A stretch of 64,000 nt of DNA from Spirochaetia bacterium (GCA_030041455.1 JASHNV010000146.1:10174-74173), one strand, 5' to 3'. Positions 41,205-63,070 are shown, counted from the first letter of the stretch. Notes: generated by a model not told the origin, from the sequence alone. Numbers and translations are program-made.

Positions 41205-41208
<4 letters not shown>
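39457..41208 (+). CDS. Sensor histidine kinase (N-terminal TM, periplasmic sensor domain, second TM, HAMP, HisKA, HATPase_c)
   Basis: H-box FSAGVAHEINNPL, N/G1/G2 boxes (NALQAI, DNGDGM, GGTGIGLAL). GTG 39457. Confidence 0.8.
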
Positions 41209-42506
<1,298 letters not shown>

Positions 42507-42651
42507 GGCTTCCGCGGCCCGCCGGGCCCGGATGGCTACTCGATTTTACTCAAATTGGGAAGAGGGTCCCCGCAGCTTCCCGTCATGAAGAGTACGAAGC
42601 GCTAACTCGTTCCAGGCAAACAGATTGAAATCGCAAAGATCCAGCCCGACT

Positions 42652-42667
42652 TGGCGTGTTTCTTGCT
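42652..42667 (+). promoter_or_regulatory. Sigma54 (-24/-12) promoter TGGCGTG-N4-TTGCT
   Basis: TGGC at 42652-42655 and TTGC at 42663-42666, GG-N10-GC spacing, about 80 nt upstream of binding-protein gene 1 and just downstream of the NtrC-type activator gene. Confidence 0.5.
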
Positions 42668-42745
42668 TAGCTATCCGGGAGGGCAGGAGGGGAGGTTCCT
42701 ACCACGAGACGGTTTTCGCTCGTTATCGCGTCGGTCGCGCTCGTT

Positions 42746-43705: not shown

Positions 43706-43785
43706 CGCAGGCGGCCTCGGGCCACGCGCAAATGAGATTGCCCCGTGTAGGGCAAGAAGAATTGATCCGAAGGAGGAAATAGACC

Positions 43786-44811
43786 ATGCGAGCGAGAAAC
43801 GTCTCGATCTTCGCCGCCCTTGCGGCGGCGGCAGTTCTCGTCCTTGCCGGCTGCGCCCCCTCTGCGAGCAAAGCCGCGAGTTCTCAGGCTGCGAGCACCA
43901 AGTGGGCGGCGGGCGTCCACATCGTCTTCTTCCCGGGCGGTCCGGAGGGCGGCGTCTTCGCCGTCAACGTCTACAACGGCGCAAAGCAGGCCGAAGAGGA
44001 CCTCGGCGTGAAGGTGGACTACGAGTGGTCGGACTGGGATCCCCAGAAGATGATTCAGCAGTTCCAGGAGGCGGTTGCGACGCATCCCGACGGCATAGCG
44101 GTCATGGGTCACCCGGGCGATGACGCGTTCGACGCGCTCATCAAGGACGCCGAGAGCAAGGGCATCATCGTGACGAGCCAGAACACGCCGCTCCCGAAGG
44201 CGGAGGCGGAGTTCCAGTCGAAGGGCTTCGGATACGTCGGTGCGCAGCTCTACCAGGCCGGCCACGACCTCGGAGCCGAGGCGGTGAAGCGCTTCGGTCT
44301 GAAGGCCGGCGACCGTGCGATGGTCTGGGGTCTCCTCTCGCAGCCGACACGCGGGGAGCGGACCAAAGGCGCGATCGACGCGCTGAAACAGGCCGGGCTG
44401 ACCGTCGACTACATCGAGATCGATCCGGCGACCAACAAGGACCCCGCGGCGGGCGCGCCGGTCTTCGCCGGCTACGTCTCCTCCCATCCGGACGTGAAGC
44501 TCGTCATCCCCGACCACGGCGGACTGACCGCGACTGCCGAGACCTACCTCAAGGCGGCGGGAAAGGGACCCGGGCAGATCCTCGTCGCCGGCTTTGACAT
44601 GTCGCCAGCGACGGTCGCCGCCATTCAGGGCGGCTGGACGGAGCTCGTGATCGACCAGCAGGAGTGGCTGCAGGGCTATCTGCCGATTCTCCAGATCGCG
44701 CTGACCAAGGTGTACGGGTTCTCGGGCCTGGACATCAACACGGGCGCGGGCTTCGTCGACAAGAGCAACGTCGATTTCATCGCGCCGCTTGCACAGCGGA
44801 ACATCCGATAG
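43786..44811 (+). CDS. ABC transporter sugar-binding lipoprotein (PBP type 1)
   Basis: Lipobox ...VLVLAGCAPS; PBP1 fold. ATG with AAGGAGG SD. Confidence 0.8.
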   Translation: MRARNVSIFAALAAAAVLVLAGCAPSASKAASSQAASTKWAAGVHIVFFPGGPEGGVFAVNVYNGAKQAEEDLGVKVDYEWSDWDPQKMIQQFQEAVATHPDGIAVMGHPGDDAFDALIKDAESKGIIVTSQNTPLPKAEAEFQSKGFGYVGAQLYQAGHDLGAEAVKRFGLKAGDRAMVWGLLSQPTRGERTKGAIDALKQAGLTVDYIEIDPATNKDPAAGAPVFAGYVSSHPDVKLVIPDHGGLTATAETYLKAAGKGPGQILVAGFDMSPATVAAIQGGWTELVIDQQEWLQGYLPILQIALTKVYGFSGLDINTGAGFVDKSNVDFIAPLAQRNIR

Positions 44812-44930
44812 ATTTTTCACGCGGACGGGCAGTGCCTTTGCGGCCCGTCCGCCCCATAGTACAATCAAGGGGTCGCGCGGGCGGCCGGTACAGGGAGACA
44901 TTTCCCGCGCTCGCGGCTGCGAGGTGGCAC

Positions 44931-45698
44931 ATGAGCAACGTTCTGACACTGAAAAACGTCTCGAAGACCTTCGGGGAAGTCGCGGCGCTTCACAACGTCA
45001 ACTTTCACGTCGGCGACAACGAGATCGTCGGGCTTCTCGGCGACAACGGCGCCGGGAAGTCGACGCTCGTGAAGATCATCACGGGCTACCATCAGCCGAA
45101 CCCCGGCGGGGAGCTCTTCTGGAAGAACGAGCGCGTCGAGCGCCTCACCGTCCCCAAGGCGCGCGACCTCGGGATCGAGGTGGTCTTTCAGGAGCGCGCG
45201 CTCGCCGACAAGCAGTCGCTGTGGCGGAATATCTTCATGGGCCGCGAGCTTTCCGACCGCCTGGGTCTTCTCGACGTGGCAAAGATGCGAAGCGAGACGC
45301 GCAGGCTCATGAACACCGCGATGGGATTCACGTCGTCCGCCGTTACGGCGGAGTCGACGGTGAAGACTTTTTCGGGCGGCGAGCGGCAGGGCGTCGCGAT
45401 AACCCGCGCGCTCTACTTCCAGGCCGAGCTCGTCATTCTCGACGAGCCGACGATGGGCCTCTCCCTCTCGGAGACGAGGAAATGCCTCGAGTTCGTCGAG
45501 GGCATCAAGAAGGCGGGAAAGGCGGCCATCTTCATCGACCACAATATCTTCCACGTCTACCCCGTAGTTGACCGCATCGTGGTGCTCGATCGCGGGACGA
45601 TCGCCGGGCAGTTCATGAAGAACGAGCTCTCGCTGCAGGAGCTCATCGACCGGCTCTATGTCGTCGCGCAGACCGGTCACCTCGAGAGCAAGAATTGA
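44931..45698 (+). CDS. ABC transporter ATP-binding protein (single NBD)
   Basis: Walker A GDNGAGKST, signature FSGGERQG, Walker B LVILDEPT. ATG 44931 after GAGGTGG. The track ORF's upstream part (from 44664) is discarded. Confidence 0.85.
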   Translation: MSNVLTLKNVSKTFGEVAALHNVNFHVGDNEIVGLLGDNGAGKSTLVKIITGYHQPNPGGELFWKNERVERLTVPKARDLGIEVVFQERALADKQSLWRNIFMGRELSDRLGLLDVAKMRSETRRLMNTAMGFTSSAVTAESTVKTFSGGERQGVAITRALYFQAELVILDEPTMGLSLSETRKCLEFVEGIKKAGKAAIFIDHNIFHVYPVVDRIVVLDRGTIAGQFMKNELSLQELIDRLYVVAQTGHLESKN

Positions 45699-45721
45699 GC
45701 CGACTGACACAAGGAGAGCAC

Positions 45722-46729
<1,008 letters not shown>

Positions 46730-46796
46730 GCGGCGGAGGGACTTCGAAGCCGGTTCGCTTGCATTCTTGAAGTCGGTCAACTACACTTTGGGTGAG

Positions 46797-47948
46797 ATGG
46801 TCGAAAGGCATTCCGCTCCGCCGCCGCGAAGGGAGGACGTCCTGAGCTCCGCTCCGAGCAAGGTCCTCGCCGGCATCGCGCACGAGCTTCGCACGCCGGT
46901 GAGCGGCATCTCCGGGATGGTCGCGCTCCTCGAAAAGACCGGGCTCACGGTCGAGCAGCGCCGCTACGTCGACCTCGTCGCCGCGTCGGCGGCCTCGCTC
47001 AGACATCTCGTGGATCAGCTCCTCGACTTCGCCGGGCTTCGCGAGGGCTCCTCCGCCCCCGTTCGGGAGCCCTTCGAGCTCAAGGCGGCGATCGAGGGCG
47101 CGGTCGCCCTTCTCGTGCCGGAGGCCGCGGAGAAGGGTCTCTCGCTCACAGTCGCCGTGGAGAGCGGGCTCGACGTCTGGGTGGCGGGGGATCCCTTCGG
47201 CCTGAGGCAGATCGTTTCCAACCTCGTGGTGAACGCGGTCAAGTTTACCGAGCGCGGCGGAATCGGGGTCGCGGCCCGACTCGACGGACGGAGCGGGGAG
47301 TCGATACTCGTCGAGCTCGCGGTGACCGACAGCGGAATCGGCATACCGGCCGAGAAGCTCGGCCCGATCTTTGACGGCTTCACGCAGCTGGAAGCCGGGG
47401 CGCGCAATCCGCGCAGGGGCCTCGGGCTCGGGCTCTCGATCGTGCATGAGGTCGCGTCGAGAATGGGCGGCCTCGTGGAGGTCGACAGCGCCGTGGGGAG
47501 GGGAAGCACGTTCACCGTCCAGCTTCCCTTTCGACTCCATCCCGGCCGGAAGGCTCAGGCGTCCGGGGGCTCGATTCTCATTGCCGAAGACGAAGCGGTC
47601 AATCGGATGTACATCGATGCCCTCCTCGCGCGAAACGGCTATCGTACCACCATCGTCTCAAGCGGCGTCGAGGCCGTGGAGGCCTTCGGCGAGGGGCGCT
47701 ACGATCTGATCCTGATGGACCTTGCGATGCCGGAGGTGGGCGGCGCCGAAGCCGCGCGCGCGATTCGCGAGCGCGAGCTCGTGCGCGGCGGCCACGTCCC
47801 CATCATCGCCCTCACGGCGTACGTTCATCGGGAGGAGATCGACCGCTGCTTGGGCGCCGGAATGGACGCGTGGATGACGAAGCCCTTCGCCGAGGACGAG
47901 CTTCTCGAGAGGATAGAAGCCCTTCTTGATCGGCGTCCCTGCGGATGA
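46797..47948 (+). CDS. Cytoplasmic hybrid histidine kinase (HisKA + HATPase_c + REC), no sensor/TM domain
   Basis: H-box IAHELRTPVSGI, G-boxes (DSGIGI, GLGLGLSIV), C-terminal receiver (ILIAEDE...LILMDLAMP...TKP). ATG 46797 chosen over TTG 46767; low confidence. Confidence 0.7.
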   Translation: MVERHSAPPPRREDVLSSAPSKVLAGIAHELRTPVSGISGMVALLEKTGLTVEQRRYVDLVAASAASLRHLVDQLLDFAGLREGSSAPVREPFELKAAIEGAVALLVPEAAEKGLSLTVAVESGLDVWVAGDPFGLRQIVSNLVVNAVKFTERGGIGVAARLDGRSGESILVELAVTDSGIGIPAEKLGPIFDGFTQLEAGARNPRRGLGLGLSIVHEVASRMGGLVEVDSAVGRGSTFTVQLPFRLHPGRKAQASGGSILIAEDEAVNRMYIDALLARNGYRTTIVSSGVEAVEAFGEGRYDLILMDLAMPEVGGAEAARAIRERELVRGGHVPIIALTAYVHREEIDRCLGAGMDAWMTKPFAEDELLERIEALLDRRPCG

Positions 47949-48501
47949 CCTTCCCGCGGGGATGCCGGACCATCCGTTCGAGCGCGCGGCACGCCGCCGA
48001 CTCGGATCCTGGTCGAGGCGGCCGGGCGCTCGGAAGCGGTCCACATGATCAACTTCTCGAGGCGCAACGCCTCGGCTCCGCGGGGTCGGGAGGAGCTCTC
48101 CCGCTTGGACGTGGCGGCTCGGCGCCCCGGCGCGCTCAGGCGAAATCGGCTGCCACGCGTACGACCGGCGAGCTTCCTCGCGGGCGGCGCCCCGGGCTCG
48201 ATCCACGCGTCAGGCGGGCCGCCGGCCTCCTACCCGCGAGCTCGTCAGGGCCTTCGGTGACCGCGGCGCGGCGGGAATCGATCTCGCGCGCTCTCGGGGA
48301 GCTACCGCCTCCCCTGCGCCGCCGGTCCGCAGGCGAGGGAGTGGAGGGAGGTGACCTGCGCGCCGACGTCCTCCAATTACGGGCGCGCGACCACGACCGT
48401 CGAGAGGACGAATCGGACGTTGTTCGTTGCGGCTACGCGGTCCAAGCGCACCTCGAGGCGGACCGAAGGGGCTCCCGGGTGCGAGCGAGCGCGGAGGCGC
48501 C

Positions 48502-49560
48502 GTGAGAAAGATCAGAATCGGCATGATCGGCGCCGGGGCGATCGCGCCCATGCACTGCCGCGGGATTCTCTCCCACCCGTCGGGAGAGCTCGTCGCGCTC
48601 GCCGACTCAAGCCGCGAGCGGGCCGACGCGCTTGCGAGGGAGTTTCGCATTCCGACGGTCTACCGCGATTACCGCAAGCTCATCGACGACCGCTCGATCG
48701 AGGCGGTCAGCGTCGCGCTTCCGAACTTCCTCCACGCTCCGGTCACGATCGCGGCCCTCGAGGCCGGAAAGCACGTTCTCCTCGAGAAGCCCTTCGCCAC
48801 GAGCGAGGCGGAGGCGCTCTCGGTGATCGGAGCCGCGGAGAGGAGCGGGAGGATCCTGACCGTCGGCATGAACCAGCGCTTCACCGTCGAGGCGCAGACC
48901 GTTCGCGCGCTCGTCGAGCGAGGCGAGCTCGGCGAGGTCTATCACCTGAAGGCGCATTGGACCCGCCGCTCGGGAGCGCCGAGGTTCGGGACCTGGTTCG
49001 CCGATCGAAAGCGCTCCGGCGGCGGCGCGCTCCTCGATATCGGCGTCCACATGCTCGATCTCGCGCTCAGCCTGATCGGGAACTTCTCTCCGCTCGCCGT
49101 GAGCGGCTTTTCCTACTCCAAGTTCGGCAGCCGCGGGCTCGGCGAAGGCAGCTGGGGTAAGTCCGATCCCGGCGAGCGGATCTTCGACGTCGACGACTTC
49201 GCCGGAGCGCTCGTCAGGCTCCAAGGAGGCGTCACGCTCGAGCTCGAGGCGTCGTGGGCGCGGCACCAGGCCGCGCCCGATTCCCGAGATGTCGAGCTTT
49301 TCGGCACCGAGGGGGGAGCGACGGTCTTTCCGCCGCGCCTTTTCAAGGGTCTCTCAGGCGGCCGCGGATATGAGACGATCGAGCTCCAAGACGGGCCGCT
49401 CCGCTACCCGGGCGCCGACCGCCACCACAACTGGATCGACGCGATCCTCGGGGTGGCCGGGATCGAGTGTACGCTCTCTCAGGCTCTCGCGGTTCAGCGG
49501 ATCATCGACGCCGTCTACCGTTCGGCGGAAAACGGCCGGGAGACGAGGCTCGAGGACTAG
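48502..49560 (+). CDS. Gfo/Idh/MocA-family NAD(P)-dependent oxidoreductase
   Basis: GTG 48502 after GGAGG. IGMIGAGAIA Rossmann motif, EKP motif (LLEKPFA). About 352 aa. Confidence 0.8.
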   Translation: MRKIRIGMIGAGAIAPMHCRGILSHPSGELVALADSSRERADALAREFRIPTVYRDYRKLIDDRSIEAVSVALPNFLHAPVTIAALEAGKHVLLEKPFATSEAEALSVIGAAERSGRILTVGMNQRFTVEAQTVRALVERGELGEVYHLKAHWTRRSGAPRFGTWFADRKRSGGGALLDIGVHMLDLALSLIGNFSPLAVSGFSYSKFGSRGLGEGSWGKSDPGERIFDVDDFAGALVRLQGGVTLELEASWARHQAAPDSRDVELFGTEGGATVFPPRLFKGLSGGRGYETIELQDGPLRYPGADRHHNWIDAILGVAGIECTLSQALAVQRIIDAVYRSAENGRETRLED

Positions 49561-51107: not shown

Positions 51108-52163
51108 TCAGTCTCCGTCCTGCTCGTCGTCGAGGAAATCCCTGAGGTTCGTCGGAAGGTTCTCGATCTCGCTCTCCACTTTCGCGTTCTTGTCGCGGTA
51201 GAGGTCGACGTCGGCGGACTTGAAGATCTCCTGGATGTCGGTCGGGCGGCCGGAGTAGACGCCGACGCTCAGCGTATAGGCGACCTGCGGCTTCTCGGCC
51301 GCATCGGCGGGGGAGCGGAGGATGCGGTCTCTCGCCGCCTCGGCCTGCTCGCGGCCGGTGTCGGGCATGAGGACGACGAACTCGTCGCCGCCGTAGCGGC
51401 ACACGACGTCGACCTTCCGAAGCTGCGAAACGAGGAGCTGGGCGACGTGGCGCAGGACGTTGTCGCCCGCGACGTGACCGAAGCTGTCGTTGATCTCCTT
51501 GAACTTGTCGATGTCGACCATGAGGACCGAGATCGTCGTACCGAGACGGTTGCTGCGGTCGATCTCGCGCTGCAGCTGCCTGATCATGTTGCGCCGGTTG
51601 TTGACGCCCGTGAGGGAGTCGATGAGCGCGATCCTTCGCAGCGCTTGGAAGTAGTAGGCCTTCTCGATCGCGATCGCCGTGAAATCGGCGATCGCGGTGA
51701 GAATCTTAAGCTCGACCGGGGTGAAGACGCCGCCGTTCAGCTTGTTCACGAGCTCGATCACGCCGAAGACCCGCTCCTTGGTCTTCAACGGGACGCCGAT
51801 GATGGACTCGGTCTTGAATCCGAGCTTTTCGTCCATCGTGGGATCGAAGCGGGGATCGTTCGCCACGTCCTTGATGATGATCGCTTGGCCGCTCTCCGCC
51901 ACCCATCCGGCGATGCCGCGCCCCTTCGCGATGGTCGTTCCTTGGAGGCTCGCGACGCCGCTTCCGATGACGAGCTTGAAGGTGAGCTCTCCGGTCTTCG
52001 GATTTCTCAGCAGAACCGACCAGTTGAGGGGCGCGAAAATATTGCCGATCTGCTCCATAACCACCCTCAACGTCTCGTTGAGCGTGGTTGCCGAGGTGAT
52101 CGCCTTGCCGACCTCGGCGAAGAAGGCCAACCGCACGAACTCGTCCATGCCGCTTGCGCTCAT
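51108..52163 (-). CDS. GAF domain-containing diguanylate cyclase (GGDEF)
   Basis: N-terminal GAF (about 150 aa), then GGDEF with RYGGDEF (GGDEF active-site motif) and upstream RxxD-like inhibitory-site residues. ATG 52163 or GTG 52169. Confidence 0.8.
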   Translation of the reverse strand: MSASGMDEFVRLAFFAEVGKAITSATTLNETLRVVMEQIGNIFAPLNWSVLLRNPKTGELTFKLVIGSGVASLQGTTIAKGRGIAGWVAESGQAIIIKDVANDPRFDPTMDEKLGFKTESIIGVPLKTKERVFGVIELVNKLNGGVFTPVELKILTAIADFTAIAIEKAYYFQALRRIALIDSLTGVNNRRNMIRQLQREIDRSNRLGTTISVLMVDIDKFKEINDSFGHVAGDNVLRHVAQLLVSQLRKVDVVCRYGGDEFVVLMPDTGREQAEAARDRILRSPADAAEKPQVAYTLSVGVYSGRPTDIQEIFKSADVDLYRDKNAKVESEIENLPTNLRDFLDDEQDGD

Positions 52164-52259
52164 GTTCACCCCGCAGTGTGAGGAGTCTCTCGTCCGAGCT
52201 TGATACTGTATTCGATCGGAGGGAATTGGTCACTATCGTTACGGCCGCCTCGCGCCGGT

Positions 52260-52295: not shown

Positions 52296-53528
52296 ATGAA
52301 CGCGCTCGAGGGACGCTGGCGGTCGTCGATTCGCGACCTCCAGGATCGGGAGGCCGAGCTCGAGCAGCAGGCGCGCGCCCTCGCAGCCGATTACGCGGGG
52401 CTCGCCGACATCGACCTCAGCCTCGATCTGATCGCCACGAAGCTTACCATTTCGATCCGTCTCGTCGATCTCGTGTCGAGAAGCCGCGATCCGGAGGCGG
52501 TCGCGGAGATGGGAAAGACGGCGAGGACCGCCGCGCTCGAGGCGGTTCACCTCCTCGAGGGGCTCGGCGCCTCCAACGTCTCCCTCGACCAAAAGGAGCT
52601 CGTGCTCGAATCCGAGGGATACGAGGAGGCGCTCCAGCTCTTTCAGCAGCTCCTTCTCCTCGGCGGAGGCTCCTTCTTCGAGTCGGAGGTCGACGACCGC
52701 AGGCAGGCGGCGAGGATCTCCGAAGTCATCGTGAGCGCGATAGCGAAGCACGTCCGTCCTGACGACGGCTATCGGCCGGTCTTCCACACCGAGCGGTTGC
52801 CGACCGCCATCCGACGGCTCGTCAACATCTTTTTCCCCGTGCTCGCCGCCGAGGGGCAGGGGGAGCCGCCCTACGGGATCGAAGAGGGCGAGCAGGTGAT
52901 CTACAGCTCCGAACGGATCAAGATGCCCCTCTCGCAGGCGATCCACTACTACGAGCAGGAGGTCCTTCCGCTCCTCGACGCCCGGCTTCGCGAGAGCCCG
53001 GGGGACCCCGCTCTTCAGCGCGAGATCGACGCGATCGAGCGAAAGCTCCGCGAGTACCGCCAGCTGCGCTTCGTGCCCCGCTCCACGCCCGTGCTCCTCA
53101 CGCAGGGCTTCTACACCGAGAGCATCTGCGAGTACACCTCGGACGGCGAGCTCCTCGTCGCCGTCGCGCTTCCGGTCCAGTACAGCTCGGGCACCAACCT
53201 CGAGCGGCTCCAGGAGCTCGTCGAGGCGGAGGTGACCCGGAAGCTCGCCGGAAAGGGGCTGTGCCCGGAGCTCGACGAGCAGTACCGGGAGCTCAAGTCG
53301 CTTCGAAGCGGCACCCGGGGAAGCTCGCGCCTTCCGAGCTTCAAGCTCGACGTGCCCTCAGGCTTCGGAGCCTTGAAGCGCAGGTTTCCGGCGATGCGCT
53401 GCATCGAGAGCAAGAGCGACTTCAAGCGCCTCATCGCCCTCGTCGAGGGCGGAAAGCGCGGGGACGCCCTCACCTTCCTCAATCGCTCCCTCTCGGCGGG
53501 GGCGGCGAGCCCGAAGGAGCTCCGCTAG
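52296..53528 (+). CDS. Hypothetical protein (410 aa)
   Basis: Long ORF with balanced composition. Coiled-coil-like N-terminus. I recognise no domain. Confidence 0.5.
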   Translation: MNALEGRWRSSIRDLQDREAELEQQARALAADYAGLADIDLSLDLIATKLTISIRLVDLVSRSRDPEAVAEMGKTARTAALEAVHLLEGLGASNVSLDQKELVLESEGYEEALQLFQQLLLLGGGSFFESEVDDRRQAARISEVIVSAIAKHVRPDDGYRPVFHTERLPTAIRRLVNIFFPVLAAEGQGEPPYGIEEGEQVIYSSERIKMPLSQAIHYYEQEVLPLLDARLRESPGDPALQREIDAIERKLREYRQLRFVPRSTPVLLTQGFYTESICEYTSDGELLVAVALPVQYSSGTNLERLQELVEAEVTRKLAGKGLCPELDEQYRELKSLRSGTRGSSRLPSFKLDVPSGFGALKRRFPAMRCIESKSDFKRLIALVEGGKRGDALTFLNRSLSAGAASPKELR

Positions 53529-54653: not shown

Positions 54654-54774
54654 GATTTTCCCCCTCGCGTCATCCGCAAAATACTACTGAAGCGCCGTGG
54701 GGAGGTCAAGAAAACGGGCCCGGGCGTCCCAGGCAACCGTGTTCAAACCGGCGGGGATCAACTATACTCAAGCC

Positions 54775-55404
54775 ATGCGGGTCTGCATCATTGTGGCCCA
54801 TCCCGACGACGAAGTCCTCTGGGCCGGCGGCGCGCTGCTCCTCCATCGAGAATGGGTTTGCGCGATCGCGACCCTCTGCCGGTCGAGTGACGCGGATCGC
54901 GCGCCGCGCTTCCGCCTCGCCGCGCAGGTCCTCGGCGCCGAGAGCGCCACCATGGCCGACCTCGACGACGGCCCCGAGCAGCGGCCCCTCGATCCCGGCG
55001 AGGTCGAGGAGGCGATCGCCTCCCTTGCAGGCGCCCGCTCCTACGACCTCCTCATCACCCACAGCCCGCGGGGCGAATACACCCGCCACCGGCGCCACGA
55101 GGAGACCGCCCGCGCCGTGCTCTCGCTCGCGCGGCGCGGCTCGCTCAAGGCGGCCGAGCTCTGGCTCTTCGCCTACGACGACGCGGGGCGCTCGCGCCTT
55201 CCCGAGGCGATTCCCGAAGCGCCGGTCCGCTTCGACCTTCCCGACGAGGTCTGGCGGCGAAAGCGCGCGATCGTGACCGACGTGTACGGCTTCGCCGCGG
55301 AGAGCTGGGAGGCGCGCGCCGCTCCGAGGAGCGAGGCCTTCTGGCGCTTCGCCGACCCCCGCGAGGCCGAGCGCGCGCTCGTCGGCGACGAGGAAAGCGC
55401 GTGA
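54775..55404 (+). CDS. PIG-L/LmbE-family N-acetylglucosaminyl deacetylase
   Basis: MRVCIIVAHPDDEVLWAGG (AHPDDE metal-binding motif), HxxH downstream. ATG 54775; weak SD. Confidence 0.7.
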   Translation: MRVCIIVAHPDDEVLWAGGALLLHREWVCAIATLCRSSDADRAPRFRLAAQVLGAESATMADLDDGPEQRPLDPGEVEEAIASLAGARSYDLLITHSPRGEYTRHRRHEETARAVLSLARRGSLKAAELWLFAYDDAGRSRLPEAIPEAPVRFDLPDEVWRRKRAIVTDVYGFAAESWEARAAPRSEAFWRFADPREAERALVGDEESA

Positions 55405-56543
55405 AGGTGCTCCTGCTCTTCGACTATCCCGCCCCCCCGGGAGGCCTCGCGACCCAGGGCGACCTCCTTTTTCGGGGCTTGCAGGAGCTCGGGGTCGACG
55501 TCCAGGCCGCGCATCTAGAGTCCGCGCGGGAAAAGGACTGGTACTACCGATGGTACCGGCCCGACGTCACGATCGGGATCGGCTATTGGGGACACGCGCC
55601 TCACATCGTGCTCGACCCGCAGGCGCACGGAATGCTTGCGGTTCCCTGGCTCGTCGCCGACGGCTACGTCGCGAACTACCGCGACGCGCTGAACGACCTT
55701 CCGCTGATCCTCGTGACCTCGAGCTGGGTGAAGGAAGTCTACATCAGGGACGGCATCAGGAGCGACAACATCGTCGTGCTTCCGGTCGGCTGCGACACCG
55801 GCTCCTTCCTGCCGCGCGACCGGGGCGAGGCGAAGGTGCGCGCGGCGCGCGAGGCGTTCGGCGTGAAGCCCGAGGAGCTCCTCATCCTCACGGTCGGCGG
55901 CGACGGCGCCTCGAAGGGGTCTCGCGAGGTCATGGAGGCGCTCGCGATGATCGATTCCGAGGTTCCCCCGTGGCGCTATCTGTGCAAGGTCTGGCCGCAG
56001 CCGCGCACCTTCGCGCAGAACGCGCTCGACCGGGAGCTCGCCGCGAAGCTCGGCATCGGCGGCAAGGTGGTCTACGCGACCACCATCGTGTCGCGAAACC
56101 TCATGCCCTACCTTTTCGCGGCGAGCGACATCTACGCGGCGCCTTCGCGCCTCGAGGGGTTCGGCATGCCGCAGGTCGAGGCCGGAGCCTGCGGGAAGCC
56201 CGTCCTCGCCATCAACGCGATGTCGATGGTCGACACCCTCGTGCACGGCGAAACCGCCTACCTCGCGGAAGTCGCCGTCGAGAACCGGATCAGCGAGACG
56301 ATCTTGGGCGTCGAGGAGGGCTTCGAGCCCGGTCACCGAGTCGCCTTCGATCCGCCCCGGATCGCCGACTATCGGGCGAGCGTTCCGGATCTCGCGAAAT
56401 GGCTCCGCGCCTTGATGACCGATCCCGCGCTGCGAAGCCGGATGGGCGAGGCCGGCCGGCTTCGGGTGGCGCGGCTCTTCGACTACCGGGCGGTCGCGCG
56501 AAGGCTGCTCGAGATTCTCGCGATCAGGCTCGGGCTGCAGTGA
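55401..56543 (+). CDS. Glycosyltransferase family 4 (GT-B, retaining)
   Basis: C-terminal GT1/GT4 core (...EGFGMPQVEAGACGKPVLA...). The GTG overlaps the deacetylase TGA (GTGA). Confidence 0.75.
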   Translation: MKVLLLFDYPAPPGGLATQGDLLFRGLQELGVDVQAAHLESAREKDWYYRWYRPDVTIGIGYWGHAPHIVLDPQAHGMLAVPWLVADGYVANYRDALNDLPLILVTSSWVKEVYIRDGIRSDNIVVLPVGCDTGSFLPRDRGEAKVRAAREAFGVKPEELLILTVGGDGASKGSREVMEALAMIDSEVPPWRYLCKVWPQPRTFAQNALDRELAAKLGIGGKVVYATTIVSRNLMPYLFAASDIYAAPSRLEGFGMPQVEAGACGKPVLAINAMSMVDTLVHGETAYLAEVAVENRISETILGVEEGFEPGHRVAFDPPRIADYRASVPDLAKWLRALMTDPALRSRMGEAGRLRVARLFDYRAVARRLLEILAIRLGLQ

Positions 56544-56574
56544 CGCCCTCTTCGAGGCACCCGGAGGCCGGACG

Positions 56575-57753
56575 GTGAACCGGAAGGAGCGCGCGCTCGT
56601 CGGCGAGACGAAGGAGGCGGCTCTCCGCGTTCTCCTGCACAACGCCCGGGGTCCCCGCCACGGGCTTCCGCGCGCCGCGGGCTGGGGCTATCCCGAGCCC
56701 TACACGCGGGATCTCATGATCGGCGCGCTCGGCATCCTCGCAAGCGGGAACGCGGAGCTCACGGCCTCCCTTCGCGCGGTGCTCCTCGCCGCCGCGGGGA
56801 GCCAGACGGAGCGAGGGCACATCCCGTCGCTCGTCGACGACCCCCTCGACCGCGGCGCGAGCGACACCACGCCGCTCTTTCTTCTCGCCGTGGCGCTCTT
56901 CCGCCGAGCGACCGGCGAGGCGCGCTTCCTCGAGCCGGCGGTGAGGAAGGCGATGACGTGGATGAGTTACCAGAGTCCGGGCGACCGCTCGCTCGTCGCC
57001 CAGCTTCCGACGAGCGACTGGCGCGATGAGCAGTGGGCGCTCGGCTACGGTCTGTACGTGAACGCGGTGGTCTATTCCTACCTGCGGCTCTTCGGAAGCC
57101 GGGAGCGCGCCGAGGCGCTCTCGCGCGAGGTCGCCATGAAGGTCGTCGAGGGGGAAGCGCAGCGGCGCCACGTTCCCGAGGGCCTCGCCCTTTCGGGAAG
57201 GCCCTACTTCGCGTTCTGGTCCTACAAGGTCTACTCGAGCGACCGCTTCGATCTCCTCGGAAACTGTCTCGCGGCGCTCTCAGGCCTCGCCCCGCCCCGG
57301 CGCGCCCGCGCGCTCATCCGCTGGGTCGAGCGCGAGTGCGACGCGCTCAGAGCGCGGCGCGAGCTCTCAGGCGAGCTCCCGCCGTGCTTCTTCCCCTACA
57401 TCCGTCCCGGCGAGAGCGACTGGCGGCCGCGCTACCGGAGGTACAACCGACCCGGCGAGTACCACAACGGCGGAGTTTGGCCCTTCGTCTGCGGATTCTA
57501 CGTCGCGGCGGCGGTCGCCGCGGGAGCTCACCGGCTCGCCGAGCGGAAGCTTCTCGCCCTCGGCGAGCTCAACCGCCTGTGCGCCGATCCCGGGCGGATC
57601 GCGCGCTTCGACGCGGCCGGCTACGGGTTCAACGAGTGGATCAAGGCGCAGGACGGAAGGCCGCGAGGCCAGGACTGGCAGAGCTGGTCGGCCGCCATGT
57701 ACCTCTACGCCGCCGCGTGCGTGGAGCGGGGCAGGGCGCTTTTCTTCGATTGA
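56575..57753 (+). CDS. (alpha/alpha)6-barrel glycoside hydrolase (GH100 neutral invertase / GH63 / glycogen-debranching-like)
   Basis: EYHNGGVWPFV motif typical of GH100/GH63/GDE-C catalytic domains. GTG 56575 after GGAGG. Confidence 0.55.
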   Translation: MNRKERALVGETKEAALRVLLHNARGPRHGLPRAAGWGYPEPYTRDLMIGALGILASGNAELTASLRAVLLAAAGSQTERGHIPSLVDDPLDRGASDTTPLFLLAVALFRRATGEARFLEPAVRKAMTWMSYQSPGDRSLVAQLPTSDWRDEQWALGYGLYVNAVVYSYLRLFGSRERAEALSREVAMKVVEGEAQRRHVPEGLALSGRPYFAFWSYKVYSSDRFDLLGNCLAALSGLAPPRRARALIRWVERECDALRARRELSGELPPCFFPYIRPGESDWRPRYRRYNRPGEYHNGGVWPFVCGFYVAAAVAAGAHRLAERKLLALGELNRLCADPGRIARFDAAGYGFNEWIKAQDGRPRGQDWQSWSAAMYLYAAACVERGRALFFD

Positions 57754-57766
57754 TCCCCGCGGGGAG

Positions 57767-59233
57767 CTAACGCTTGAGCAGCTCGCCGAGAAGTTCGTCG
57801 AGCGGGACGGTCGCGAAGGTCGTCGCCGAGTCCGAGACCCCGTAGGGAATGATGAGCTCGCCGTTGTGGACCATCGAGCCGCACGAATAGACCACGTTCG
57901 GAACGTAGCCTTCGCGCTCGGTTTCGCTCGGCATGAGGAGCGGCTCCCGCAGGCGTCCGATCACCTTCGAGGGGTCGTCGAGGTCGAGCAGCGACGCGCC
58001 GAGGCAGTACTGCCGCATCGGGCCGACTCCGTGGAGGACCACGAGCCACCCCGCGCTCGTCTCGATGGGCGAGCCGCAGTTTCCGATCTGGACGAACTCC
58101 CAAGGAAACTCAGGCCCCTGAAGCAGGCGCGCGTCGTTCCAGATGTGGATCGAGTCGGAGAAGCTGATGTAGGCGTTCTCGCCGTCGAGGCGCGAGATCA
58201 TCGCGTAGCGGCCGTTGAGCTTGCGGGGAAAGAGCGCCATGCCCTTGTTCTGCGCCTTGTCGCCGTTCAGGGGCATCACCTTGAAGTGGTAGAAGTCCTT
58301 GGTCTCCAGGAGCTTGGGCAGGATCGTGTGGCCGTCGTAGGCCGTGTAGGTCGCGTAGTAGACGGGCTCGTCCTTGCCGTTGACGAACCGGCAGAAGCGG
58401 GCGTCCTCGATGCCGTTGCTCTCGGCGTAGGAGATCGGGAAGATGACCCTCTCGGAGATCGCGGTATCGAGCGAGAAGGTCATCTCGTAATGGGAGCTCG
58501 CCACCCAGTTGATCGTTCTGATCCTCTCCCGGGTCGCGTCGGAGAGATCGGACTCCCGCGACGCCTCGCCGATCGCGGCCTGCAGCTCTCCGTAAATGAA
58601 GCTGTCGCCGAGCCGGTCCATCACGAGCTCGATGACGTCGGCCGGCACCTGAATCTCCCGGCACTTCTGGATGAAGCGCTTCTTGTCGTAGACGTAGCGC
58701 TTCACCATCTCAGGCACGTCGACGAGCGCGCCGGCCGGCTCGAAGGACAGGTCGTTGTTGGCGTCGATGATGCCGCTTCGAAAGACGATCGACGAAACGT
58801 GCCCTTCGCCGGTGGCGCGGAAGCTTACGATGATCCGTTTCTGTCCCTTCAGAAGGCTCCCCTGATAGGGGTCTTCGACCATCGACGGATTGAAGAAGGC
58901 CGCCGACTCGATCGAGTACTCGCTCGTGAAGTACGATCCGATGAGCAGCTTGCGCTCGTGGCCGATTTTCGCGGTGTCGATCCCCTGGGAGGCGAGCTGC
59001 TCCGCGATGTTCGCGTAGTGGCTCTCGAAGGTCTTCGAGATGTTGCGGTGGCGCTTGGAGAAGTCGCGCAGCGCCGGATAGATCAGCTCTTTCACGGCGC
59101 CGTCGTCGAGGGCGAGCACGCGCCGTGCGACCGCCGCGACGCGATCGGGCCCGCCGGGAATGAACGGCCGGGCGATTACCCGCTTGGAATCGGGATGGAA
59201 AAACGCCGGCTTGCGCTTGACGTTGATGGCCAT
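57767..59233 (-). CDS. GH130-like (DUF377) beta-propeller glycoside phosphorylase/hydrolase with N-terminal extension
   Basis: C-terminal ...VYSCGSMVHNGELIIPYGVSDSATTFATV resembles the terminal blade of GH130 phosphorylases. 488 aa. Confidence 0.5.
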   Translation of the reverse strand: MAINVKRKPAFFHPDSKRVIARPFIPGGPDRVAAVARRVLALDDGAVKELIYPALRDFSKRHRNISKTFESHYANIAEQLASQGIDTAKIGHERKLLIGSYFTSEYSIESAAFFNPSMVEDPYQGSLLKGQKRIIVSFRATGEGHVSSIVFRSGIIDANNDLSFEPAGALVDVPEMVKRYVYDKKRFIQKCREIQVPADVIELVMDRLGDSFIYGELQAAIGEASRESDLSDATRERIRTINWVASSHYEMTFSLDTAISERVIFPISYAESNGIEDARFCRFVNGKDEPVYYATYTAYDGHTILPKLLETKDFYHFKVMPLNGDKAQNKGMALFPRKLNGRYAMISRLDGENAYISFSDSIHIWNDARLLQGPEFPWEFVQIGNCGSPIETSAGWLVVLHGVGPMRQYCLGASLLDLDDPSKVIGRLREPLLMPSETEREGYVPNVVYSCGSMVHNGELIIPYGVSDSATTFATVPLDELLGELLKR

Positions 59234-59344
59234 GGCACGCCCCCACGTTCGCGAACGAGCTTCTTTTCTCCCATGATAGCCGCTTGCGTCCGGTTTGGGA
59301 AGCGAAAAGCCGCGAAAACCTCATGGGGCCCCGGGCAAGCGCGC

Positions 59345-59373
59345 TTGCATTCCCGCCGGGGGTGGAATATCCT
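59345..59373 (+). promoter_or_regulatory. Possible promoter TTGCAT-17-TATCCT in the divergent region
   Basis: Weak -10. Located in the 145-bp divergent gap. Confidence 0.15.
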
Positions 59374-59390
59374 AGCTCGTGAGGGGCCTC

Positions 59391-61607
59391 ATGACACCGA
59401 AGAAGGTCGCGTTCATCTCCTCCTTTCTTCCGCGCAAGTGCGGAATAGCCACCTTCACCGCCGACCTCATCAAGAACGCGTCCGCGGCAGGCGGCGAGAG
59501 CTTCGCGCCCATCGTCATCGCCATGGAAAACGGCTCCCACGTCTACGACGAGCGGGTTACCTTCAAGATCACGCAGGACCTCAAGCAGGATTACATCGCC
59601 GCCGCGGAGTACATCAACTTCTCGGGGGTCACGAGCGTCTGCCTCCAGCACGAGTTCGGCCTTTTCGGAGGGGAGGCGGGGAGCTACATCAACCTTCTCC
59701 TGAACAAGGTCTCCGCGCCCATTACGACCACGCTCCACACGATTCTCGAGGAGCCCGACAACGCGCTGTACCAGGAGCTCGTGTCCATCGCGGAGGCGTC
59801 CGACCGCGTGGTCGTCATGAGCAGGCGCTCCGAGCGGGTGCTGCGGGAGCTGTACCGAGTCCCGCCGAGCAAGATCGCCTTCATTCCGCACGGGGCGCCC
59901 GACATCGACTTCGTCGACTCGACCTACTACAAGCAGGCCCTCGGTTTCCACGGCCGGACCCTGATTCTCACCTTCGGGCTCCTCGCGCAGAACAAGGGGA
60001 TCGAGTACGCGATCCGGTCGCTCCCGCCGATCGTCAAGGACGATCCCTCGGTGCTCTACGCGGTCGTCGGCGTCACCCACCCGGAGGTCGTCAAGAACGA
60101 GGGGGAGGCGTACCGCCTCTCGCTCATGCGCCTCGTCGAGGAGCTCGAGCTCGAAGGCCACGTCGTGTTCGTCGACCGATTCGTGAGCGACGAGGACCTT
60201 CGCACCTACCTGAGCGCCGCGGATATCTACCTCACGCCCTACCTCGTCAAGGAACAGGCGATCTCGGGGACGCTGTCCTTCGCGCTCGCCGCCGGCAAGG
60301 CGATCATCTCGACGCCCTACTGGTACGCCGAGGAGCTCCTCGCGGAGAGGCGCGGCGAGATCGTGCCCTTCCGCGACGCGCTCGCCATCACCGCCGGGCT
60401 CCGGACGCTCCTCGGCGACCGCCAGGGCGCCTACGCGATGCGCGAGCGCGCCTACGAGTTCGGCCGCACGATGACCTGGTCGAAGGCGGGAGCGATGTAC
60501 TGGGCGCTCTTCTCGCGCTACGGCTCGCCTCCGGCGATCAAGATCAAGTCGTTCGAGTTCGAGGCGGTGCGCAACGTTCCCCAGCCCCTCATGAACCACC
60601 TCCAGCGCCTCACCGACGATACCGGCATCCTCCAGCACGCGAAGTTCATCATTCCCGACCGCTCAAGCGGCTATTGCACCGACGACAACGCCCGCGCGCT
60701 GGAAGCGACGGCGCTCTACTATGATCAATACCGCGAGCGGGAGGCGCTGCGCCTGCTCGATACCTACCTCTCCTTCGTCGCCTACGCCCAGAAGGACTCC
60801 GGCGAGTTCCACAACTTCATGGGCTTCGACCGGCGCTTCGCCGAGGAGGATACCTACTCCGGCGACCAGACCGGGCGCGCGCTGTCCGGCCTCGGCATGG
60901 TCATCGCGAAGCCGCCGCTCCCGCAGTATCGGCTCTACGCCCGCGAGAAGTTCGACCGTTCGCTTCCGGTCATCCGCCACCTCAACGTGCGGGGCAAGGC
61001 GCACGCGATCAACGGCCTCGCCCACTACCTCGCGGTGCACCCGGAGAAGGACGATTTGCGGACCGAGATAGCCGGAGCGGCCGACTCCCTCGTCGAGCGC
61101 TTCCGCGAGACCGCCACCGGTGACTGGGAGTGGTACGAGGACGTCCTCACCTACGACAACGGCATCATGCCCCGCGCTCTCTTCATCGCCGCGAAGGTTC
61201 TCAAGAACCGAGGCTATCTCGACGTCGCGGTCACGACGTGCCGCTTTCTCGTCTCGAGGATCTCAAACGGGCGGTGGTTTTCGTTCGTCGGCTCGAACGG
61301 CTGGTACCCGAGGGGCGGGACAAAGGCGCGCTACGACCAGCAGGCGGTCGAGGCGGTGAGCACGGTGCAGATGCTCGGCTCGGCGTACGAGGCGACCGGC
61401 GACTCCGCCTACGTGGACTTGCAGCGGACCGCCTTCAACTGGTTCCTCGGCGTCAACGACAAGGAGCTTCCGCTCTACGATTTCACGACCCACGGCTGCT
61501 ACGACGGCCTGCACGAGACGGGGGTCAACCTGAACCAGGGAGCCGAGAGCCTGCTCTCCTACATGCTCGCGCTCTTCTGCGTCATCGAGACCTCCACGAT
61601 CCTGTAG
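59391..61607 (+). CDS. Glycosyltransferase family 4 N-terminal domain fused to an about 340-aa C-terminal domain of unknown function (possibly an (alpha/alpha)6-like glycoside-binding module)
   Basis: ATG 59391 (MTPKKVAFISSFLPRKCGIATF...), GAGGGG SD. Residues about 1-390 have a GT-B fold (...YLTPY..E.ISGTLSFALAAGKAIISTP). The C-terminal part (HAKFIIPDRSSGYCTDDNARALE...) has no Rossmann signature. Confidence 0.65.
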   Translation: MTPKKVAFISSFLPRKCGIATFTADLIKNASAAGGESFAPIVIAMENGSHVYDERVTFKITQDLKQDYIAAAEYINFSGVTSVCLQHEFGLFGGEAGSYINLLLNKVSAPITTTLHTILEEPDNALYQELVSIAEASDRVVVMSRRSERVLRELYRVPPSKIAFIPHGAPDIDFVDSTYYKQALGFHGRTLILTFGLLAQNKGIEYAIRSLPPIVKDDPSVLYAVVGVTHPEVVKNEGEAYRLSLMRLVEELELEGHVVFVDRFVSDEDLRTYLSAADIYLTPYLVKEQAISGTLSFALAAGKAIISTPYWYAEELLAERRGEIVPFRDALAITAGLRTLLGDRQGAYAMRERAYEFGRTMTWSKAGAMYWALFSRYGSPPAIKIKSFEFEAVRNVPQPLMNHLQRLTDDTGILQHAKFIIPDRSSGYCTDDNARALEATALYYDQYREREALRLLDTYLSFVAYAQKDSGEFHNFMGFDRRFAEEDTYSGDQTGRALSGLGMVIAKPPLPQYRLYAREKFDRSLPVIRHLNVRGKAHAINGLAHYLAVHPEKDDLRTEIAGAADSLVERFRETATGDWEWYEDVLTYDNGIMPRALFIAAKVLKNRGYLDVAVTTCRFLVSRISNGRWFSFVGSNGWYPRGGTKARYDQQAVEAVSTVQMLGSAYEATGDSAYVDLQRTAFNWFLGVNDKELPLYDFTTHGCYDGLHETGVNLNQGAESLLSYMLALFCVIETSTIL

Positions 61608-61654
61608 GCGGCAACTGGACATTTCCGGCCGGTCGGTGAATAATTCCGCCATCT

Positions 61655-63070
61655 ATGGAACAGAAACCGATGAGCACCAGCGAGAAGGCCATGAGGATCA
61701 ACCTCGACAAGGCCGTTCACGGGACCCTCGCGGAGATCGGCGCCGGGCAGGAGGTCGCCCGCTGGCTGTTCCGCGTCGGTGGGGCGGCGAGCACGGTCGC
61801 GAAGACCATCTCGGCCTACGACATGGCGGTGAGCGACGCCATCTACGGCACAGCCGACCGGTACGTGAGCCGCCGCCGCCTGGAAGCGATGCTCGACCAC
61901 GAGTACAGCCTGCTCCTCGAGAGGCTCAACGAGAAGCGCGGCTCGAACACCTGCTTTTTCGTCTTCGCCGACACCGTTGCCGCGCGCAGCTACTCCCGCC
62001 ACGAGGAGGGCCAAGGCTGGCTGGGGGTCCGGTTTCAGTCGTCGCCGCACAGCGATCCGTGCGACATCATCATCCACGTGCGGATGTTCGACACCGAGAA
62101 CACCCACGAGCAGGAGGCGCTCGGGATCGTCGGCATGAACCTCCTCCACGGCGCCTACTACCTGCGCGAGAATCCGGAGGCGCTCATCCGCTCGCTTCTC
62201 GACGATCTCTCGCGAGACCGCATCGAGATCGACATGATCAAGTTCGGCGGCCACTGCTTCACGCACCTCGACGCCCGTCTCATGAGCCTCAGGCTCGTCC
62301 AGCTCGGCCTCACCGAGGCGGCGATGTTCACCGCGGACGGCGAAGCGATCCAACCGGGCGAGGTGCTCCACAACAAGCCCGTGCTCATCCTGCGGGGAAG
62401 CTTTCGGCCGATCACCAACACCGTCATGGACATGCTCGAGAGCGCCGTCGAGCAGTTCCTGCCGAGCGCGCAGGAGTCAAGCGGCGAGCCGGTCATCCTC
62501 ATGGAGATGACGCTTCACAACCTCGCGGGGGACTCGGGGATAGACCCGGAGGACTTCCTCGAGCGCGCGAAGATCCTCGAGGGGCTCGGCAAGACCGTGC
62601 TCATCAGCAACCTCGCCCATTACCACAGCGTCGCCGTCTACCTTTCCCACTACACGAACAATCGAATCGGCATCGTGCTCGGCATCCCGGCGCTCGAGCA
62701 GGTGTTCGACGAGCGCTATTACTCGGAGCTCGACGGCGGCATTCTCGAGGCCTTCGGCCGCCTCTTCAAGGCGCGCGTCGAGATGCTCGTCTATCCTTCG
62801 TTCGACGCCGTCGTAGGCCAGCAGATCTCCGTCGCCAACATGCAGGTCGCGCCCCAGCTCCGCCACCTCTACCAGCATCTCGTCGAGAACCGGCTGCTCG
62901 TGCCGATCCGGCCGCTCAACCAGAACCAGCTCGGCGTCTTTCCCCGACAGGTCCTCGCGCTCATCCAGAAGGGCGATCCGAACTGGGAGCGGAACGTGCC
63001 GCCCCAGGTGGCAAAGCTCATCAAAGAGGGCCACTATTTCGGCTACACCGACCCGGTGACGGCGGGCTGA
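61655..63070 (+). CDS. Hypothetical protein (471 aa)
   Basis: Long ORF with realistic composition directly after the glycosyltransferase fusion gene. I recognise no motif. Confidence 0.5.
   Translation: MEQKPMSTSEKAMRINLDKAVHGTLAEIGAGQEVARWLFRVGGAASTVAKTISAYDMAVSDAIYGTADRYVSRRRLEAMLDHEYSLLLERLNEKRGSNTCFFVFADTVAARSYSRHEEGQGWLGVRFQSSPHSDPCDIIIHVRMFDTENTHEQEALGIVGMNLLHGAYYLRENPEALIRSLLDDLSRDRIEIDMIKFGGHCFTHLDARLMSLRLVQLGLTEAAMFTADGEAIQPGEVLHNKPVLILRGSFRPITNTVMDMLESAVEQFLPSAQESSGEPVILMEMTLHNLAGDSGIDPEDFLERAKILEGLGKTVLISNLAHYHSVAVYLSHYTNNRIGIVLGIPALEQVFDERYYSELDGGILEAFGRLFKARVEMLVYPSFDAVVGQQISVANMQVAPQLRHLYQHLVENRLLVPIRPLNQNQLGVFPRQVLALIQKGDPNWERNVPPQVAKLIKEGHYFGYTDPVTAG

Follow-up and report, generated by a model that had tools for sequence, protein, structure and literature searches.

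A Conserved Cluster of a De-N-acetylase, Two GT4 Glycosyltransferases, and Glycoside-Active Enzymes in a Spirochaetia Bacterium: A Possible Pathway for an Intracellular Glycoside

Introduction

The stretch of DNA analyzed here (64,000 nucleotides, called the window throughout) comes from a Spirochaetia bacterium (GCA_030041455.1, JASHNV010000146.1:10174-74173). Between positions 54,775 and 63,070 it carries genes for an LmbE/PIG-L family de-N-acetylase, two glycosyltransferases of family GT4, one of them fused to a second domain, a glycoside hydrolase related to family GH100, and a protein of family GH130. The question raised by this locus is whether these genes act together and, if so, on what compound. 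A preliminary description of the sequence had proposed that they produce and turn over a small glycoside. We found that they make up a module that is widespread in uncultured sediment and soil bacteria and clearly selected, and the parts of which are familiar enzyme types. The reading that we prefer, with a probability of roughly 0.45, is that five soluble cytoplasmic enzymes build and recycle an intracellular glucosamine (GlcN)/mannose glycoside or short glycan that serves as a carbon reserve or as an osmolyte. On the evidence of profile comparisons, every protein falls in a known superfamily and none at the equivalog level. Three sizeable components, the GT4-(alpha/alpha)6 fusion, a long form of GH130, and the GH100-like enzyme, are uncharacterized. 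No description of the five-gene combination was found in the literature.

Gene Organization

Six open reading frames were found where the preliminary description had placed them. The features of the locus are the following:

54775-55404, plus strand: LmbE/PIG-L family metal-dependent de-N-acetylase, 209 amino acids counted from an ATG, Pfam PF02585
55401-56543, plus strand: GT4a, a retaining GT-B glycosyltransferase of 380 amino acids, Pfam Glycos_transf_1
56575-57753, plus strand: GH100/GDE_C-like (alpha/alpha)6 glycoside hydrolase of 392 amino acids, Pfam PF12899 and PF06202
57767-59233, minus strand: long-form GH130 of 488 amino acids, a conserved N-terminal region joined to the C-terminal portion of the GH130 beta-propeller, predicted beta-mannoside phosphorylase, Pfam PF04041
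59234-59378: divergent intergenic region of 145 bp between the GH130 and GT4 fusion genes
59379-61607, plus strand: GT4 fusion gene, 742 amino acids, N-terminal GT4 domain and C-terminal (alpha/alpha)6 barrel
59379-60545, plus strand: N-terminal GT4 domain of the fusion, Pfam Glycos_transf_1, Glyco_trans_1_4, and Glyco_transf_4
60546-61607, plus strand: C-terminal (alpha/alpha)6-barrel domain of the fusion, from a structure model
61655-63070, plus strand: conserved protein of 471 amino acids without a Pfam domain, adjacent and judged to lie outside the module

The start of the LmbE gene is placed at 54739 in the NCBI record of the source contig (metagenome-assembled genome (MAG) GCA_030048495.1), which gives a product of 221 amino acids. 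The G+C content at third codon positions was 0.88-0.93 in all six open reading frames, as in the real genes of the window (66% G+C). The start of GT4a and the stop of LmbE overlap in a GTGA read directly in the sequence at 55401-55404, which bears out the translational coupling claimed earlier. The GT4a gene is followed after 31 bp by the GH100-like gene, which converges with the GH130 gene across a gap of 13 bp. Neither a signal peptide nor a membrane segment was predicted in any of the five carbohydrate proteins. A promoter-like site was located on the minus strand of the GH130/fusion intergenic region (59301-59273); it is a consensus match only, and suggestive. Scanning for terminator-like sites yielded a frequency not above that of shuffled sequence.

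Conservation of the Cluster

Two surveys of gene neighborhoods were carried out. The first used a profile of the fusion protein and gave 80 loci from species-representative genomes, and the second used a profile of the GH100-like protein and gave 80 metagenome loci, for about 160 loci in total (individual loci are cited by L numbers). In the second survey the GT4a gene adjoined the GH100-like gene in 61 of the 62 loci in which this could be tested, and the LmbE gene was adjacent in 56 of 58 testable triad loci, in both cases always on the same strand. The GT4a and GH100-like proteins from these loci are about 59-73% identical to those of the window. LmbE, GT4a, and the GH100-like enzyme are encoded in a near-invariant same-strand operon, referred to here as the triad.

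The GH130 and fusion genes form the other part of the cluster. In the first survey 32 of the 80 loci had a GH130 gene next to the fusion gene, and virtually all of these came from outside Planctomycetota (Acidobacteriota, 'Deltaproteobacteria', Chloroflexota, Verrucomicrobiota, Ignavibacteria, and Spirochaetales). This GH130 was mostly a short form of about 330 amino acids, encoded directly downstream on the same strand. Long forms of 480-500 amino acids were found beside the fusion in L004, L041, L059, and L061. Tandem GH130 genes also occur, one short and one long in L059 and two short ones in L047.

The two parts are frequently found together. Of the 80 triad loci, 34 contained a GH130 gene or a piece of the fusion; for the 16 loci with wide flanks the number was 10. 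The genes of both modules lie side by side in at least four orders, that of the window included: fusion-LmbE-GT4a-GH100-GH130 on a single strand (L150 and L156), GH130-LmbE-GT4a-GH100-fusion (L119), long GH130-LmbE-GT4a-GH100 (L131), and, in many triad loci, short GH130-LmbE-GT4a-GH100. Packing of all genes on one strand, in the manner of a single operon, was seen in L129, L125, L150, and L156. Genes for small integral membrane proteins of about 200 amino acids recur in triad clusters immediately 5' of the short GH130 gene; the proteins are MarC in 11 loci (e.g., L099, L101, and L125) and DUF5698/DUF2179 proteins in 7 (e.g., L129 and L162).

Changes in domain composition accompany these changes in order. 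The halves of the fusion are encoded by separate genes in several clusters, the (alpha/alpha)6 domain standing alone as a protein of 359 amino acids (46-47% identity to the corresponding half) and a divergent GT4-like protein of 474 amino acids standing alone in related clusters (26-28% identity). At the other extreme, a single open reading frame of 1075 amino acids in L054 (9971-13198) unites GT4, (alpha/alpha)6, and short-form GH130 regions; it is either a real Rosetta-stone fusion or the product of a frameshift at a gene junction in a long-read MAG. Genes of mannose metabolism were found at some of these sites. A fusion of GT4 to a phosphomannose isomerase (PMI; cupin) domain is encoded next to the short GH130 in L045 (7500-9032) and L047 (8263-9636), and a phosphomannomutase/phosphoglucomutase (PMM/PGM) gene lies next to the long GH130 in L059 (16115-17494).

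The arrangement is far beyond what chance would produce because it recurs in many independent loci of several phyla. Adjacency was kept through rearrangement, domain fission, and domain fusion and is therefore good evidence for functional coupling. The possibility raised in the preliminary description that the cluster is not conserved as a unit did not hold, the genes being kept together in relatives as well as in other phyla. Gene content, linkage, solubility of the proteins, and intact motifs are direct results of the analysis.

The Encoded Proteins

All the family labels given in the preliminary description were sustained, each by a score above the Pfam gathering threshold. The LmbE protein matched PF02585 with 41.1 bits (cut-off, 28.2). 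Its AHPDDE motif (residues 8-13) was kept in 55 of 55 ungapped homologues, and H96, H105, and H108 were invariant in 60 of 60; this pattern corresponds to the metal site of MshB-type deacetylases. GT4a matched Glycos_transf_1 with 66.1 bits (cut-off, 26.4) and has a canonical EX7E motif (E252..E260), with E260 present in at least 97% of 77 sequences. It reached no equivalog cut-off in NCBIfam. The best score was 70 bits for glgA_Coryne (cut-off, 302), followed by 57.2 for MshA (462.5) and 29.9 for BshA (273.7). The score of LmbE with BshB2 was 18.6 bits (195.25), and that of the fusion with MshA (TIGR03449) was 24.4 (462.5).

The GH100-like protein matched Glyco_hydro_100 (PF12899) with 35.9 bits (cut-off, 23.6) and GDE_C (PF06202) with 27.4 (cut-off, 21). 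The PF12899 match is partial, residues 224-336 aligning with profile positions 289-394 of 435, and homologues of the protein also carry PF22422. There are 6444 homologues at E <= 1e-5, and the 120 listed are full length and 62-71% identical. The best matches among sequences of the Protein Data Bank (PDB) were cyanobacterial and plant alkaline/neutral invertases, which aligned with the C-terminal third only (E about 1e-10 with a profile). The catalytic residues of GH100 are an Asp and a Glu in Anabaena InvA. E354, which is part of an invariant GFNEW motif, aligns with the Glu of the FPE motif of Anabaena InvA/InvB. The region of the invertase catalytic Asp did not align, and the invariant DWRDEQW (148-154) is a candidate for the location of the second catalytic residue.

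The GH130 protein matched PF04041 with 118.6 bits (cut-off, 26), residues 260-482 covering profile positions 84-315 of 320. The PDB sequences nearest to it were those of the 1,2-beta-oligomannan phosphorylase Teth514_1788 (6e-34) and of a beta-1,2-mannobiose phosphorylase; GT108 chains were missing from the PDB sequence matches. The catalytic Asp is present (D277), and both solved phosphorylases have the same residues at the positions aligned with the stretch G-I-E-D277-A-R and with K330, R348, H401, and Y409. GH130 hydrolases are marked by Glu in place of the basic phosphate-binding residues (PMC4599007, Cuskin 2015), and these hydrolase-type substitutions were not seen in the sequence alignment. 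The alignment with BT3780 begins downstream of the Lys that determines beta-1,2 specificity (Cuskin 2015). The protein is predicted to be a beta-mannoside phosphorylase.

The N-terminal region of the long-form GH130, about 260 residues, had no Pfam match and no PDB sequence match even with a 7-sequence profile. It is strongly conserved (FSxRHRN, EYSIESAAFFNPS, SFRATGEGHxSSIVFRSG) and was found in 1417 representatives of clusters formed at 50% identity, where it mostly opens proteins of about 480-505 amino acids. As judged from these sequences, the region defines a subfamily. In P0480 (751 amino acids) it is located at residues 279-524, behind an unidentified part of about 280 amino acids that may be a further fusion partner.

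The GT4 domain of the fusion matched Glycos_transf_1 with 54.4 bits (cut-off, 26.4), and its best PDB sequence match was PimA, a weak one (7e-07). The C-terminal region of about 350 amino acids had no significant Pfam match, GH88 and GH127 appearing below threshold only, and was modeled as an (alpha/alpha)6 barrel with a predicted local confidence score (pLDDT) of 87.7. The family of the fusion counts at least 8000 proteins, and the 120 homologues listed are full length and at least 49% identical. The family is represented in Spirochaetales (the closest, 70%), Planctomycetota, Brocadiia, Desulfomonilaceae, Acidobacteriota, Chloroflexota, Verrucomicrobiota, and Ignavibacteria, and in a MAG of an ANME-2 archaeon. 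In Planctomycetota (L003 and about 20-27 others, L005-L032) a block of genes including a divergent Rrf2, cysK, a hexapeptide acetyltransferase (cysE), nadA, and nifU/nifS precedes the fusion gene. This neighborhood reflects either a functional linkage or phylum-level synteny only.

Neighboring Genes

The 471-amino-acid protein had been described as a conserved-looking hypothetical belonging to the cluster. Its conservation was upheld and its membership was not. At least 8000 homologues exist, and the 120 listed are 56-72% identical and have no Pfam domain. No other GT4-fusion or GH100-like locus of either survey carried the gene, and the neighbors of its homologues are variable and unrelated; it was therefore rejected as a cluster member. 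About 18 kb separate the homologue from the GH130/fusion pair in the nearest relative for which a long contig exists. The structure model shows CinA/PncC-like and NadD-like folds; a few of the listed homologues are named 'TonB-dependent receptor', a label at odds with a soluble protein of such fold. A promoter-like site (61616-61644; a suggestive consensus match) is found directly 5' of the gene.

The window genes scanned between 19 and 54 kb encode transporters, regulators, and oxidoreductases only, and none of them is a gene for nucleotide-mannose synthesis, a Cys ligase, or an acetyltransferase. Positions 39457-47948 carry genes for two kinases (a histidine kinase and a hybrid kinase), a sigma-54 response regulator, two sugar-binding proteins of the Peripla_BP_4 family, and the ATPase and permease of an ATP-binding cassette (ABC) transporter. 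The set resembles a system for the uptake of sugars, without an evident connection to the cluster, and a GFO/IDH/MocA oxidoreductase gene follows it (48427-49560). Closer to the cluster, a 410-amino-acid protein without a Pfam domain (52296-53528, plus strand) is encoded beside a GAF-GGDEF protein (51108-52169, minus strand). This pair is kept in L088 upstream of the LmbE triad, with identities of 67% and 71%, respectively.

Discussion

What is proposed below on substrates, step order, and physiological role is inferred. In the pathway that we prefer, GT4a would transfer GlcNAc, probably from UDP-GlcNAc, to an acceptor in an alpha linkage, as its family and its strict coupling to the deacetylase suggest. 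LmbE, which has the appropriate family assignment and an intact metal site, would then strip the acetyl group to leave an alpha-GlcN glycoside. By analogy, the GT4 domain of the fusion would add an alpha-linked hexose, most likely mannose, and the fused (alpha/alpha)6 barrel would trim or cleave the same alpha-glycan for recycling or to generate primers, as MmpH does for ManT. GH130 would reversibly add or remove beta-mannosyl residues through mannose 1-phosphate (Man-1-P) and phosphate, so that stored mannose could be mobilized at no ATP cost; the family, the retained phosphorylase-type residues, and the PMM and PMI-domain genes found alongside in some loci point to this step. During breakdown, the GH100-like hydrolase would cleave the core alpha-glycosidic bond, a role consistent with its family and with the aligned catalytic Glu. 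Synthesis plus turnover, as opposed to the assembly of lipopolysaccharide (LPS) or exopolysaccharide (EPS), was also the view of the preliminary description. It is retained here, both GT4 proteins scoring below every LPS/EPS equivalog cut-off in NCBIfam and the cluster being conserved.

Several points weigh against this pathway. A hydrolase encoded in the same operon as the synthase of its presumed substrate would create a futile cycle unless regulated. The substrates, donors, and products of all the enzymes rest on inference, and no nucleotide-sugar synthesis gene is consistently present in the clusters. The EX7E motif, which is typical of GT4 and not strictly defining, is not conserved in the fusion, where E292 was found in only 8 of 12 sequences and S or A occupies position 300. 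The fusion may therefore use an unusual donor or atypical chemistry. GH130 scored far below the cut-offs of the beta-1,2-mannobiose and beta-1,2-oligomannan phosphorylase equivalogs NF050092 and NF052550 (147.3 versus 550 and 141.4 versus 450), the short form of the clusters likewise scored below them (231.6 versus 550 and 212.8 versus 450), and the short-form enzymes of related clusters are about equally near to beta-1,2 and beta-1,4 enzymes. In Planctomycetota the fusion is usually alone, away from GH130 and the triad, and the modules are therefore separable. The same follows from L088, a close relative that keeps the flanking synteny and in which an insertion between the modules encodes AraC, DUF5107, a PBP, and an ABC sugar transporter. 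A transporter and a regulator at this position also fit a catabolic function.

Of the alternatives, catabolism survives best, and it is unlikely. The locus would degrade an imported beta-mannosyl/GlcNAc oligosaccharide, such as an N-glycan-core-like fragment or fragments of microbial glycans. LmbE would play the part of the archaeal diacetylchitobiose deacetylase, GH130 would be a phosphorylase, as the GT4 proteins possibly would be, and both (alpha/alpha)6 proteins would be glycosidases. The LmbE family does include catabolic deacetylases, and the unconserved EX7E motif of the fusion and the L088 genes, which are placed between the GH100-like gene and GH130, agree with such roles. In addition, phosphorylases occur within the GT4 family (PMC4264767), and most of the characterized GH130 enzymes are catabolic (PMC7660257). 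However, across the two surveys neither a transporter, a regulator, a sugar kinase, nor a glucosamine-6-phosphate deaminase was consistently linked to the cluster. For catabolism, a pair of GT4 proteins in each cluster would be out of the ordinary, and the 60-73% identity of the triad proteins over distant lineages suggests a fixed endogenous substrate.

It is also improbable, and we place this reading after catabolism, that the cluster consists of two independent modules that are merely frequent neighbors, the triad making and degrading a small alpha-GlcN glycoside and GH130 with the fusion serving a separate mannan or mannoside. Each module often occurs without the other. Among the 80 fusion loci the triad was found only in L008 and in the contig of the window, and 46 of the 80 triad loci lacked GH130 and any piece of the fusion, though many of those contigs are short. 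In L088 the modules are about 8 kb apart. Nonetheless, the recurrence of adjacency in several orders and orientations points to selection over inherited synteny, and in L129, L125, L150, and L156 the genes of the cluster are packed on one strand.

A membrane glycolipid or envelope glycoconjugate has a low probability as the product. The cluster would then make a GlcN-lipid or a compound resembling phosphatidylinositol mannosides or glycosylphosphatidylinositol, with GT4a and LmbE as PIG-A/PIG-L analogues and the GT4 domain of the fusion as a PimA-like mannosyltransferase. PimA is the best PDB sequence match of that domain, as indicated above, GT4a weakly matched N-acetylglucosaminyl-phosphatidylglycerol synthase (29.6 bits), the Pfam family of LmbE is named for the GlcNAc-phosphatidylinositol de-N-acetylase, and MarC or DUF5698/DUF2179 membrane proteins are encoded in some clusters. 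Yet the NCBIfam scores are all far under the family cut-offs, and no flippase, polymerase, polyprenyl-phosphate transferase, or acyltransferase was linked in the surveyed loci. In a lipid-anchor pathway one would expect neither a cytoplasmic phosphorylase nor two soluble glycosidase-like barrels, and membrane segments are absent from all five proteins.

A precursor of a low-molecular-weight thiol of the bacillithiol (BshA TIGR03999, BshB, BshC) or mycothiol kind, as entertained in the preliminary description, is very improbable and was rejected: the translationally coupled GT4 and LmbE pair and the weak NCBIfam matches to MshA, BshA, and BshB2 recall it, but these scores are 5- to 10-fold under the equivalog cut-offs, no thiol pathway is known to include a glycosidase, the product of the invariant third gene, or mannoside enzymes, the frequent partners, and the search recommended for BshC-, MshC-, or MshD-like genes, which covered the roughly 160 loci and a Pfam scan of 20 window genes, found none, nor was any other Cys-ligase-like gene present in the loci or any acetyltransferase partner in the clusters. 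The mannosylglycerate-type solute suggested at the same time found no specific support either, as the cluster lacks a conserved gene for a GpgS/MpgS-like protein or for a phosphatase. A link to mannosylglucosylglycerate, considered on the supposition that MggA resembles GH130, was discarded because MggA is a GT4 alpha-mannosyltransferase and the pathway requires GpgS and MggB (PMC3736172), which are absent here.

Known systems offer partial parallels to the intracellular glycoside pathway. In the synthesis of the mycobacterial methylmannose polysaccharide (MMP), the GT4 alpha-1,4-mannosyltransferase ManT and the (alpha/alpha)6 endo-alpha-mannosidase MmpH are a synthesis and self-recycling pair (PMC9883506). 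Here, in contrast, the GT4 and (alpha/alpha)6 parts are fused in one polypeptide, methyltransferases are missing, and GH130, LmbE, a second GT4, and the GH100-like enzyme are added. MmpH has no detectable sequence similarity to the barrel of the fusion, which is structurally nearer to YPO2471 and to AGE-family epimerases, and the activity proposed for the barrel is by analogy only. Our literature searches on YPO2471 and on GH130 in combination with LmbE and GH100 found nothing relevant.

A second parallel is provided by Thermoanaerobacter, in which Teth514_1786-1789 comprise a GH130 pair, an alpha-mannosyltransferase of family GT4, and an enzyme that acts as Man-1-P guanylyltransferase (PMC4264767), and by Leishmania mannogen, a reversible beta-1,2-mannan store made by GT108 enzymes, the MTPs (PMC10913872, PMC12814180). 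The common features are a GH130-type beta-mannoside phosphorylase (a predicted one here) close to GT4 and mannose-phosphate/nucleotide enzymes and the logic of reversible, ATP-sparing storage of mannose. Unlike those systems, the cluster has a long-form GH130 and the LmbE triad and lacks a guanylyltransferase.

The first two genes of the triad resemble BshA/BshB, MshA/MshB, and PIG-A/PIG-L, in which an LmbE de-N-acetylase comes after a GT4 enzyme of the GlcNAc-transferase-like kind; the metal-binding AHPDDE motif and the His residues are kept. They differ from BshA and MshA in that they are not orthologous (30-57 bits versus 274-463), no Cys ligase is found in the loci, and a glycosidase is the invariant third gene. 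A GT4 synthase accompanied by a clan-related (alpha/alpha)6 hydrolase that breaks down the small glycoside formed by the synthase is also seen in cyanobacterial sucrose metabolism (sucrose-phosphate synthase (SPS) and GH100 invertase) and with the glucosylglycerate/mannosylglycerate hydrolases (GH63, PF22422). Unlike in these systems, a deacetylase is interposed, implying an amino sugar, and there is no phosphatase. The score with the SPS model was 17.7 bits (cut-off, 576).

Conclusions

A broader version of the intracellular glycoside pathway can be formulated, and we consider it rather doubtful. The cluster may make a widespread glycan of uncultured anaerobes (Spirochaetota, Planctomycetota, Acidobacteriota, Desulfobacterota, and others) that has an alpha-GlcN core with alpha- and beta-mannose, is built by a fused self-priming transferase-glycosidase, and is mobilized by the long-form GH130, as a counterpart of Leishmania mannogen or mycobacterial MMP. 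Owing to the conserved linkage, the pathway is directly testable with five soluble proteins. If it is real, a new storage or stress metabolite would be defined, and new enzymes would become available for making beta-mannosides and amino-sugar glycosides. Functions would be assigned to three large groups of proteins without annotation, namely the GH100-like enzymes of the triad, the long-form GH130 proteins, and the GT4-(alpha/alpha)6 fusions. The pathway would be present in thousands of environmental genomes, the component families having from 6444 to at least 8000 homologues each.

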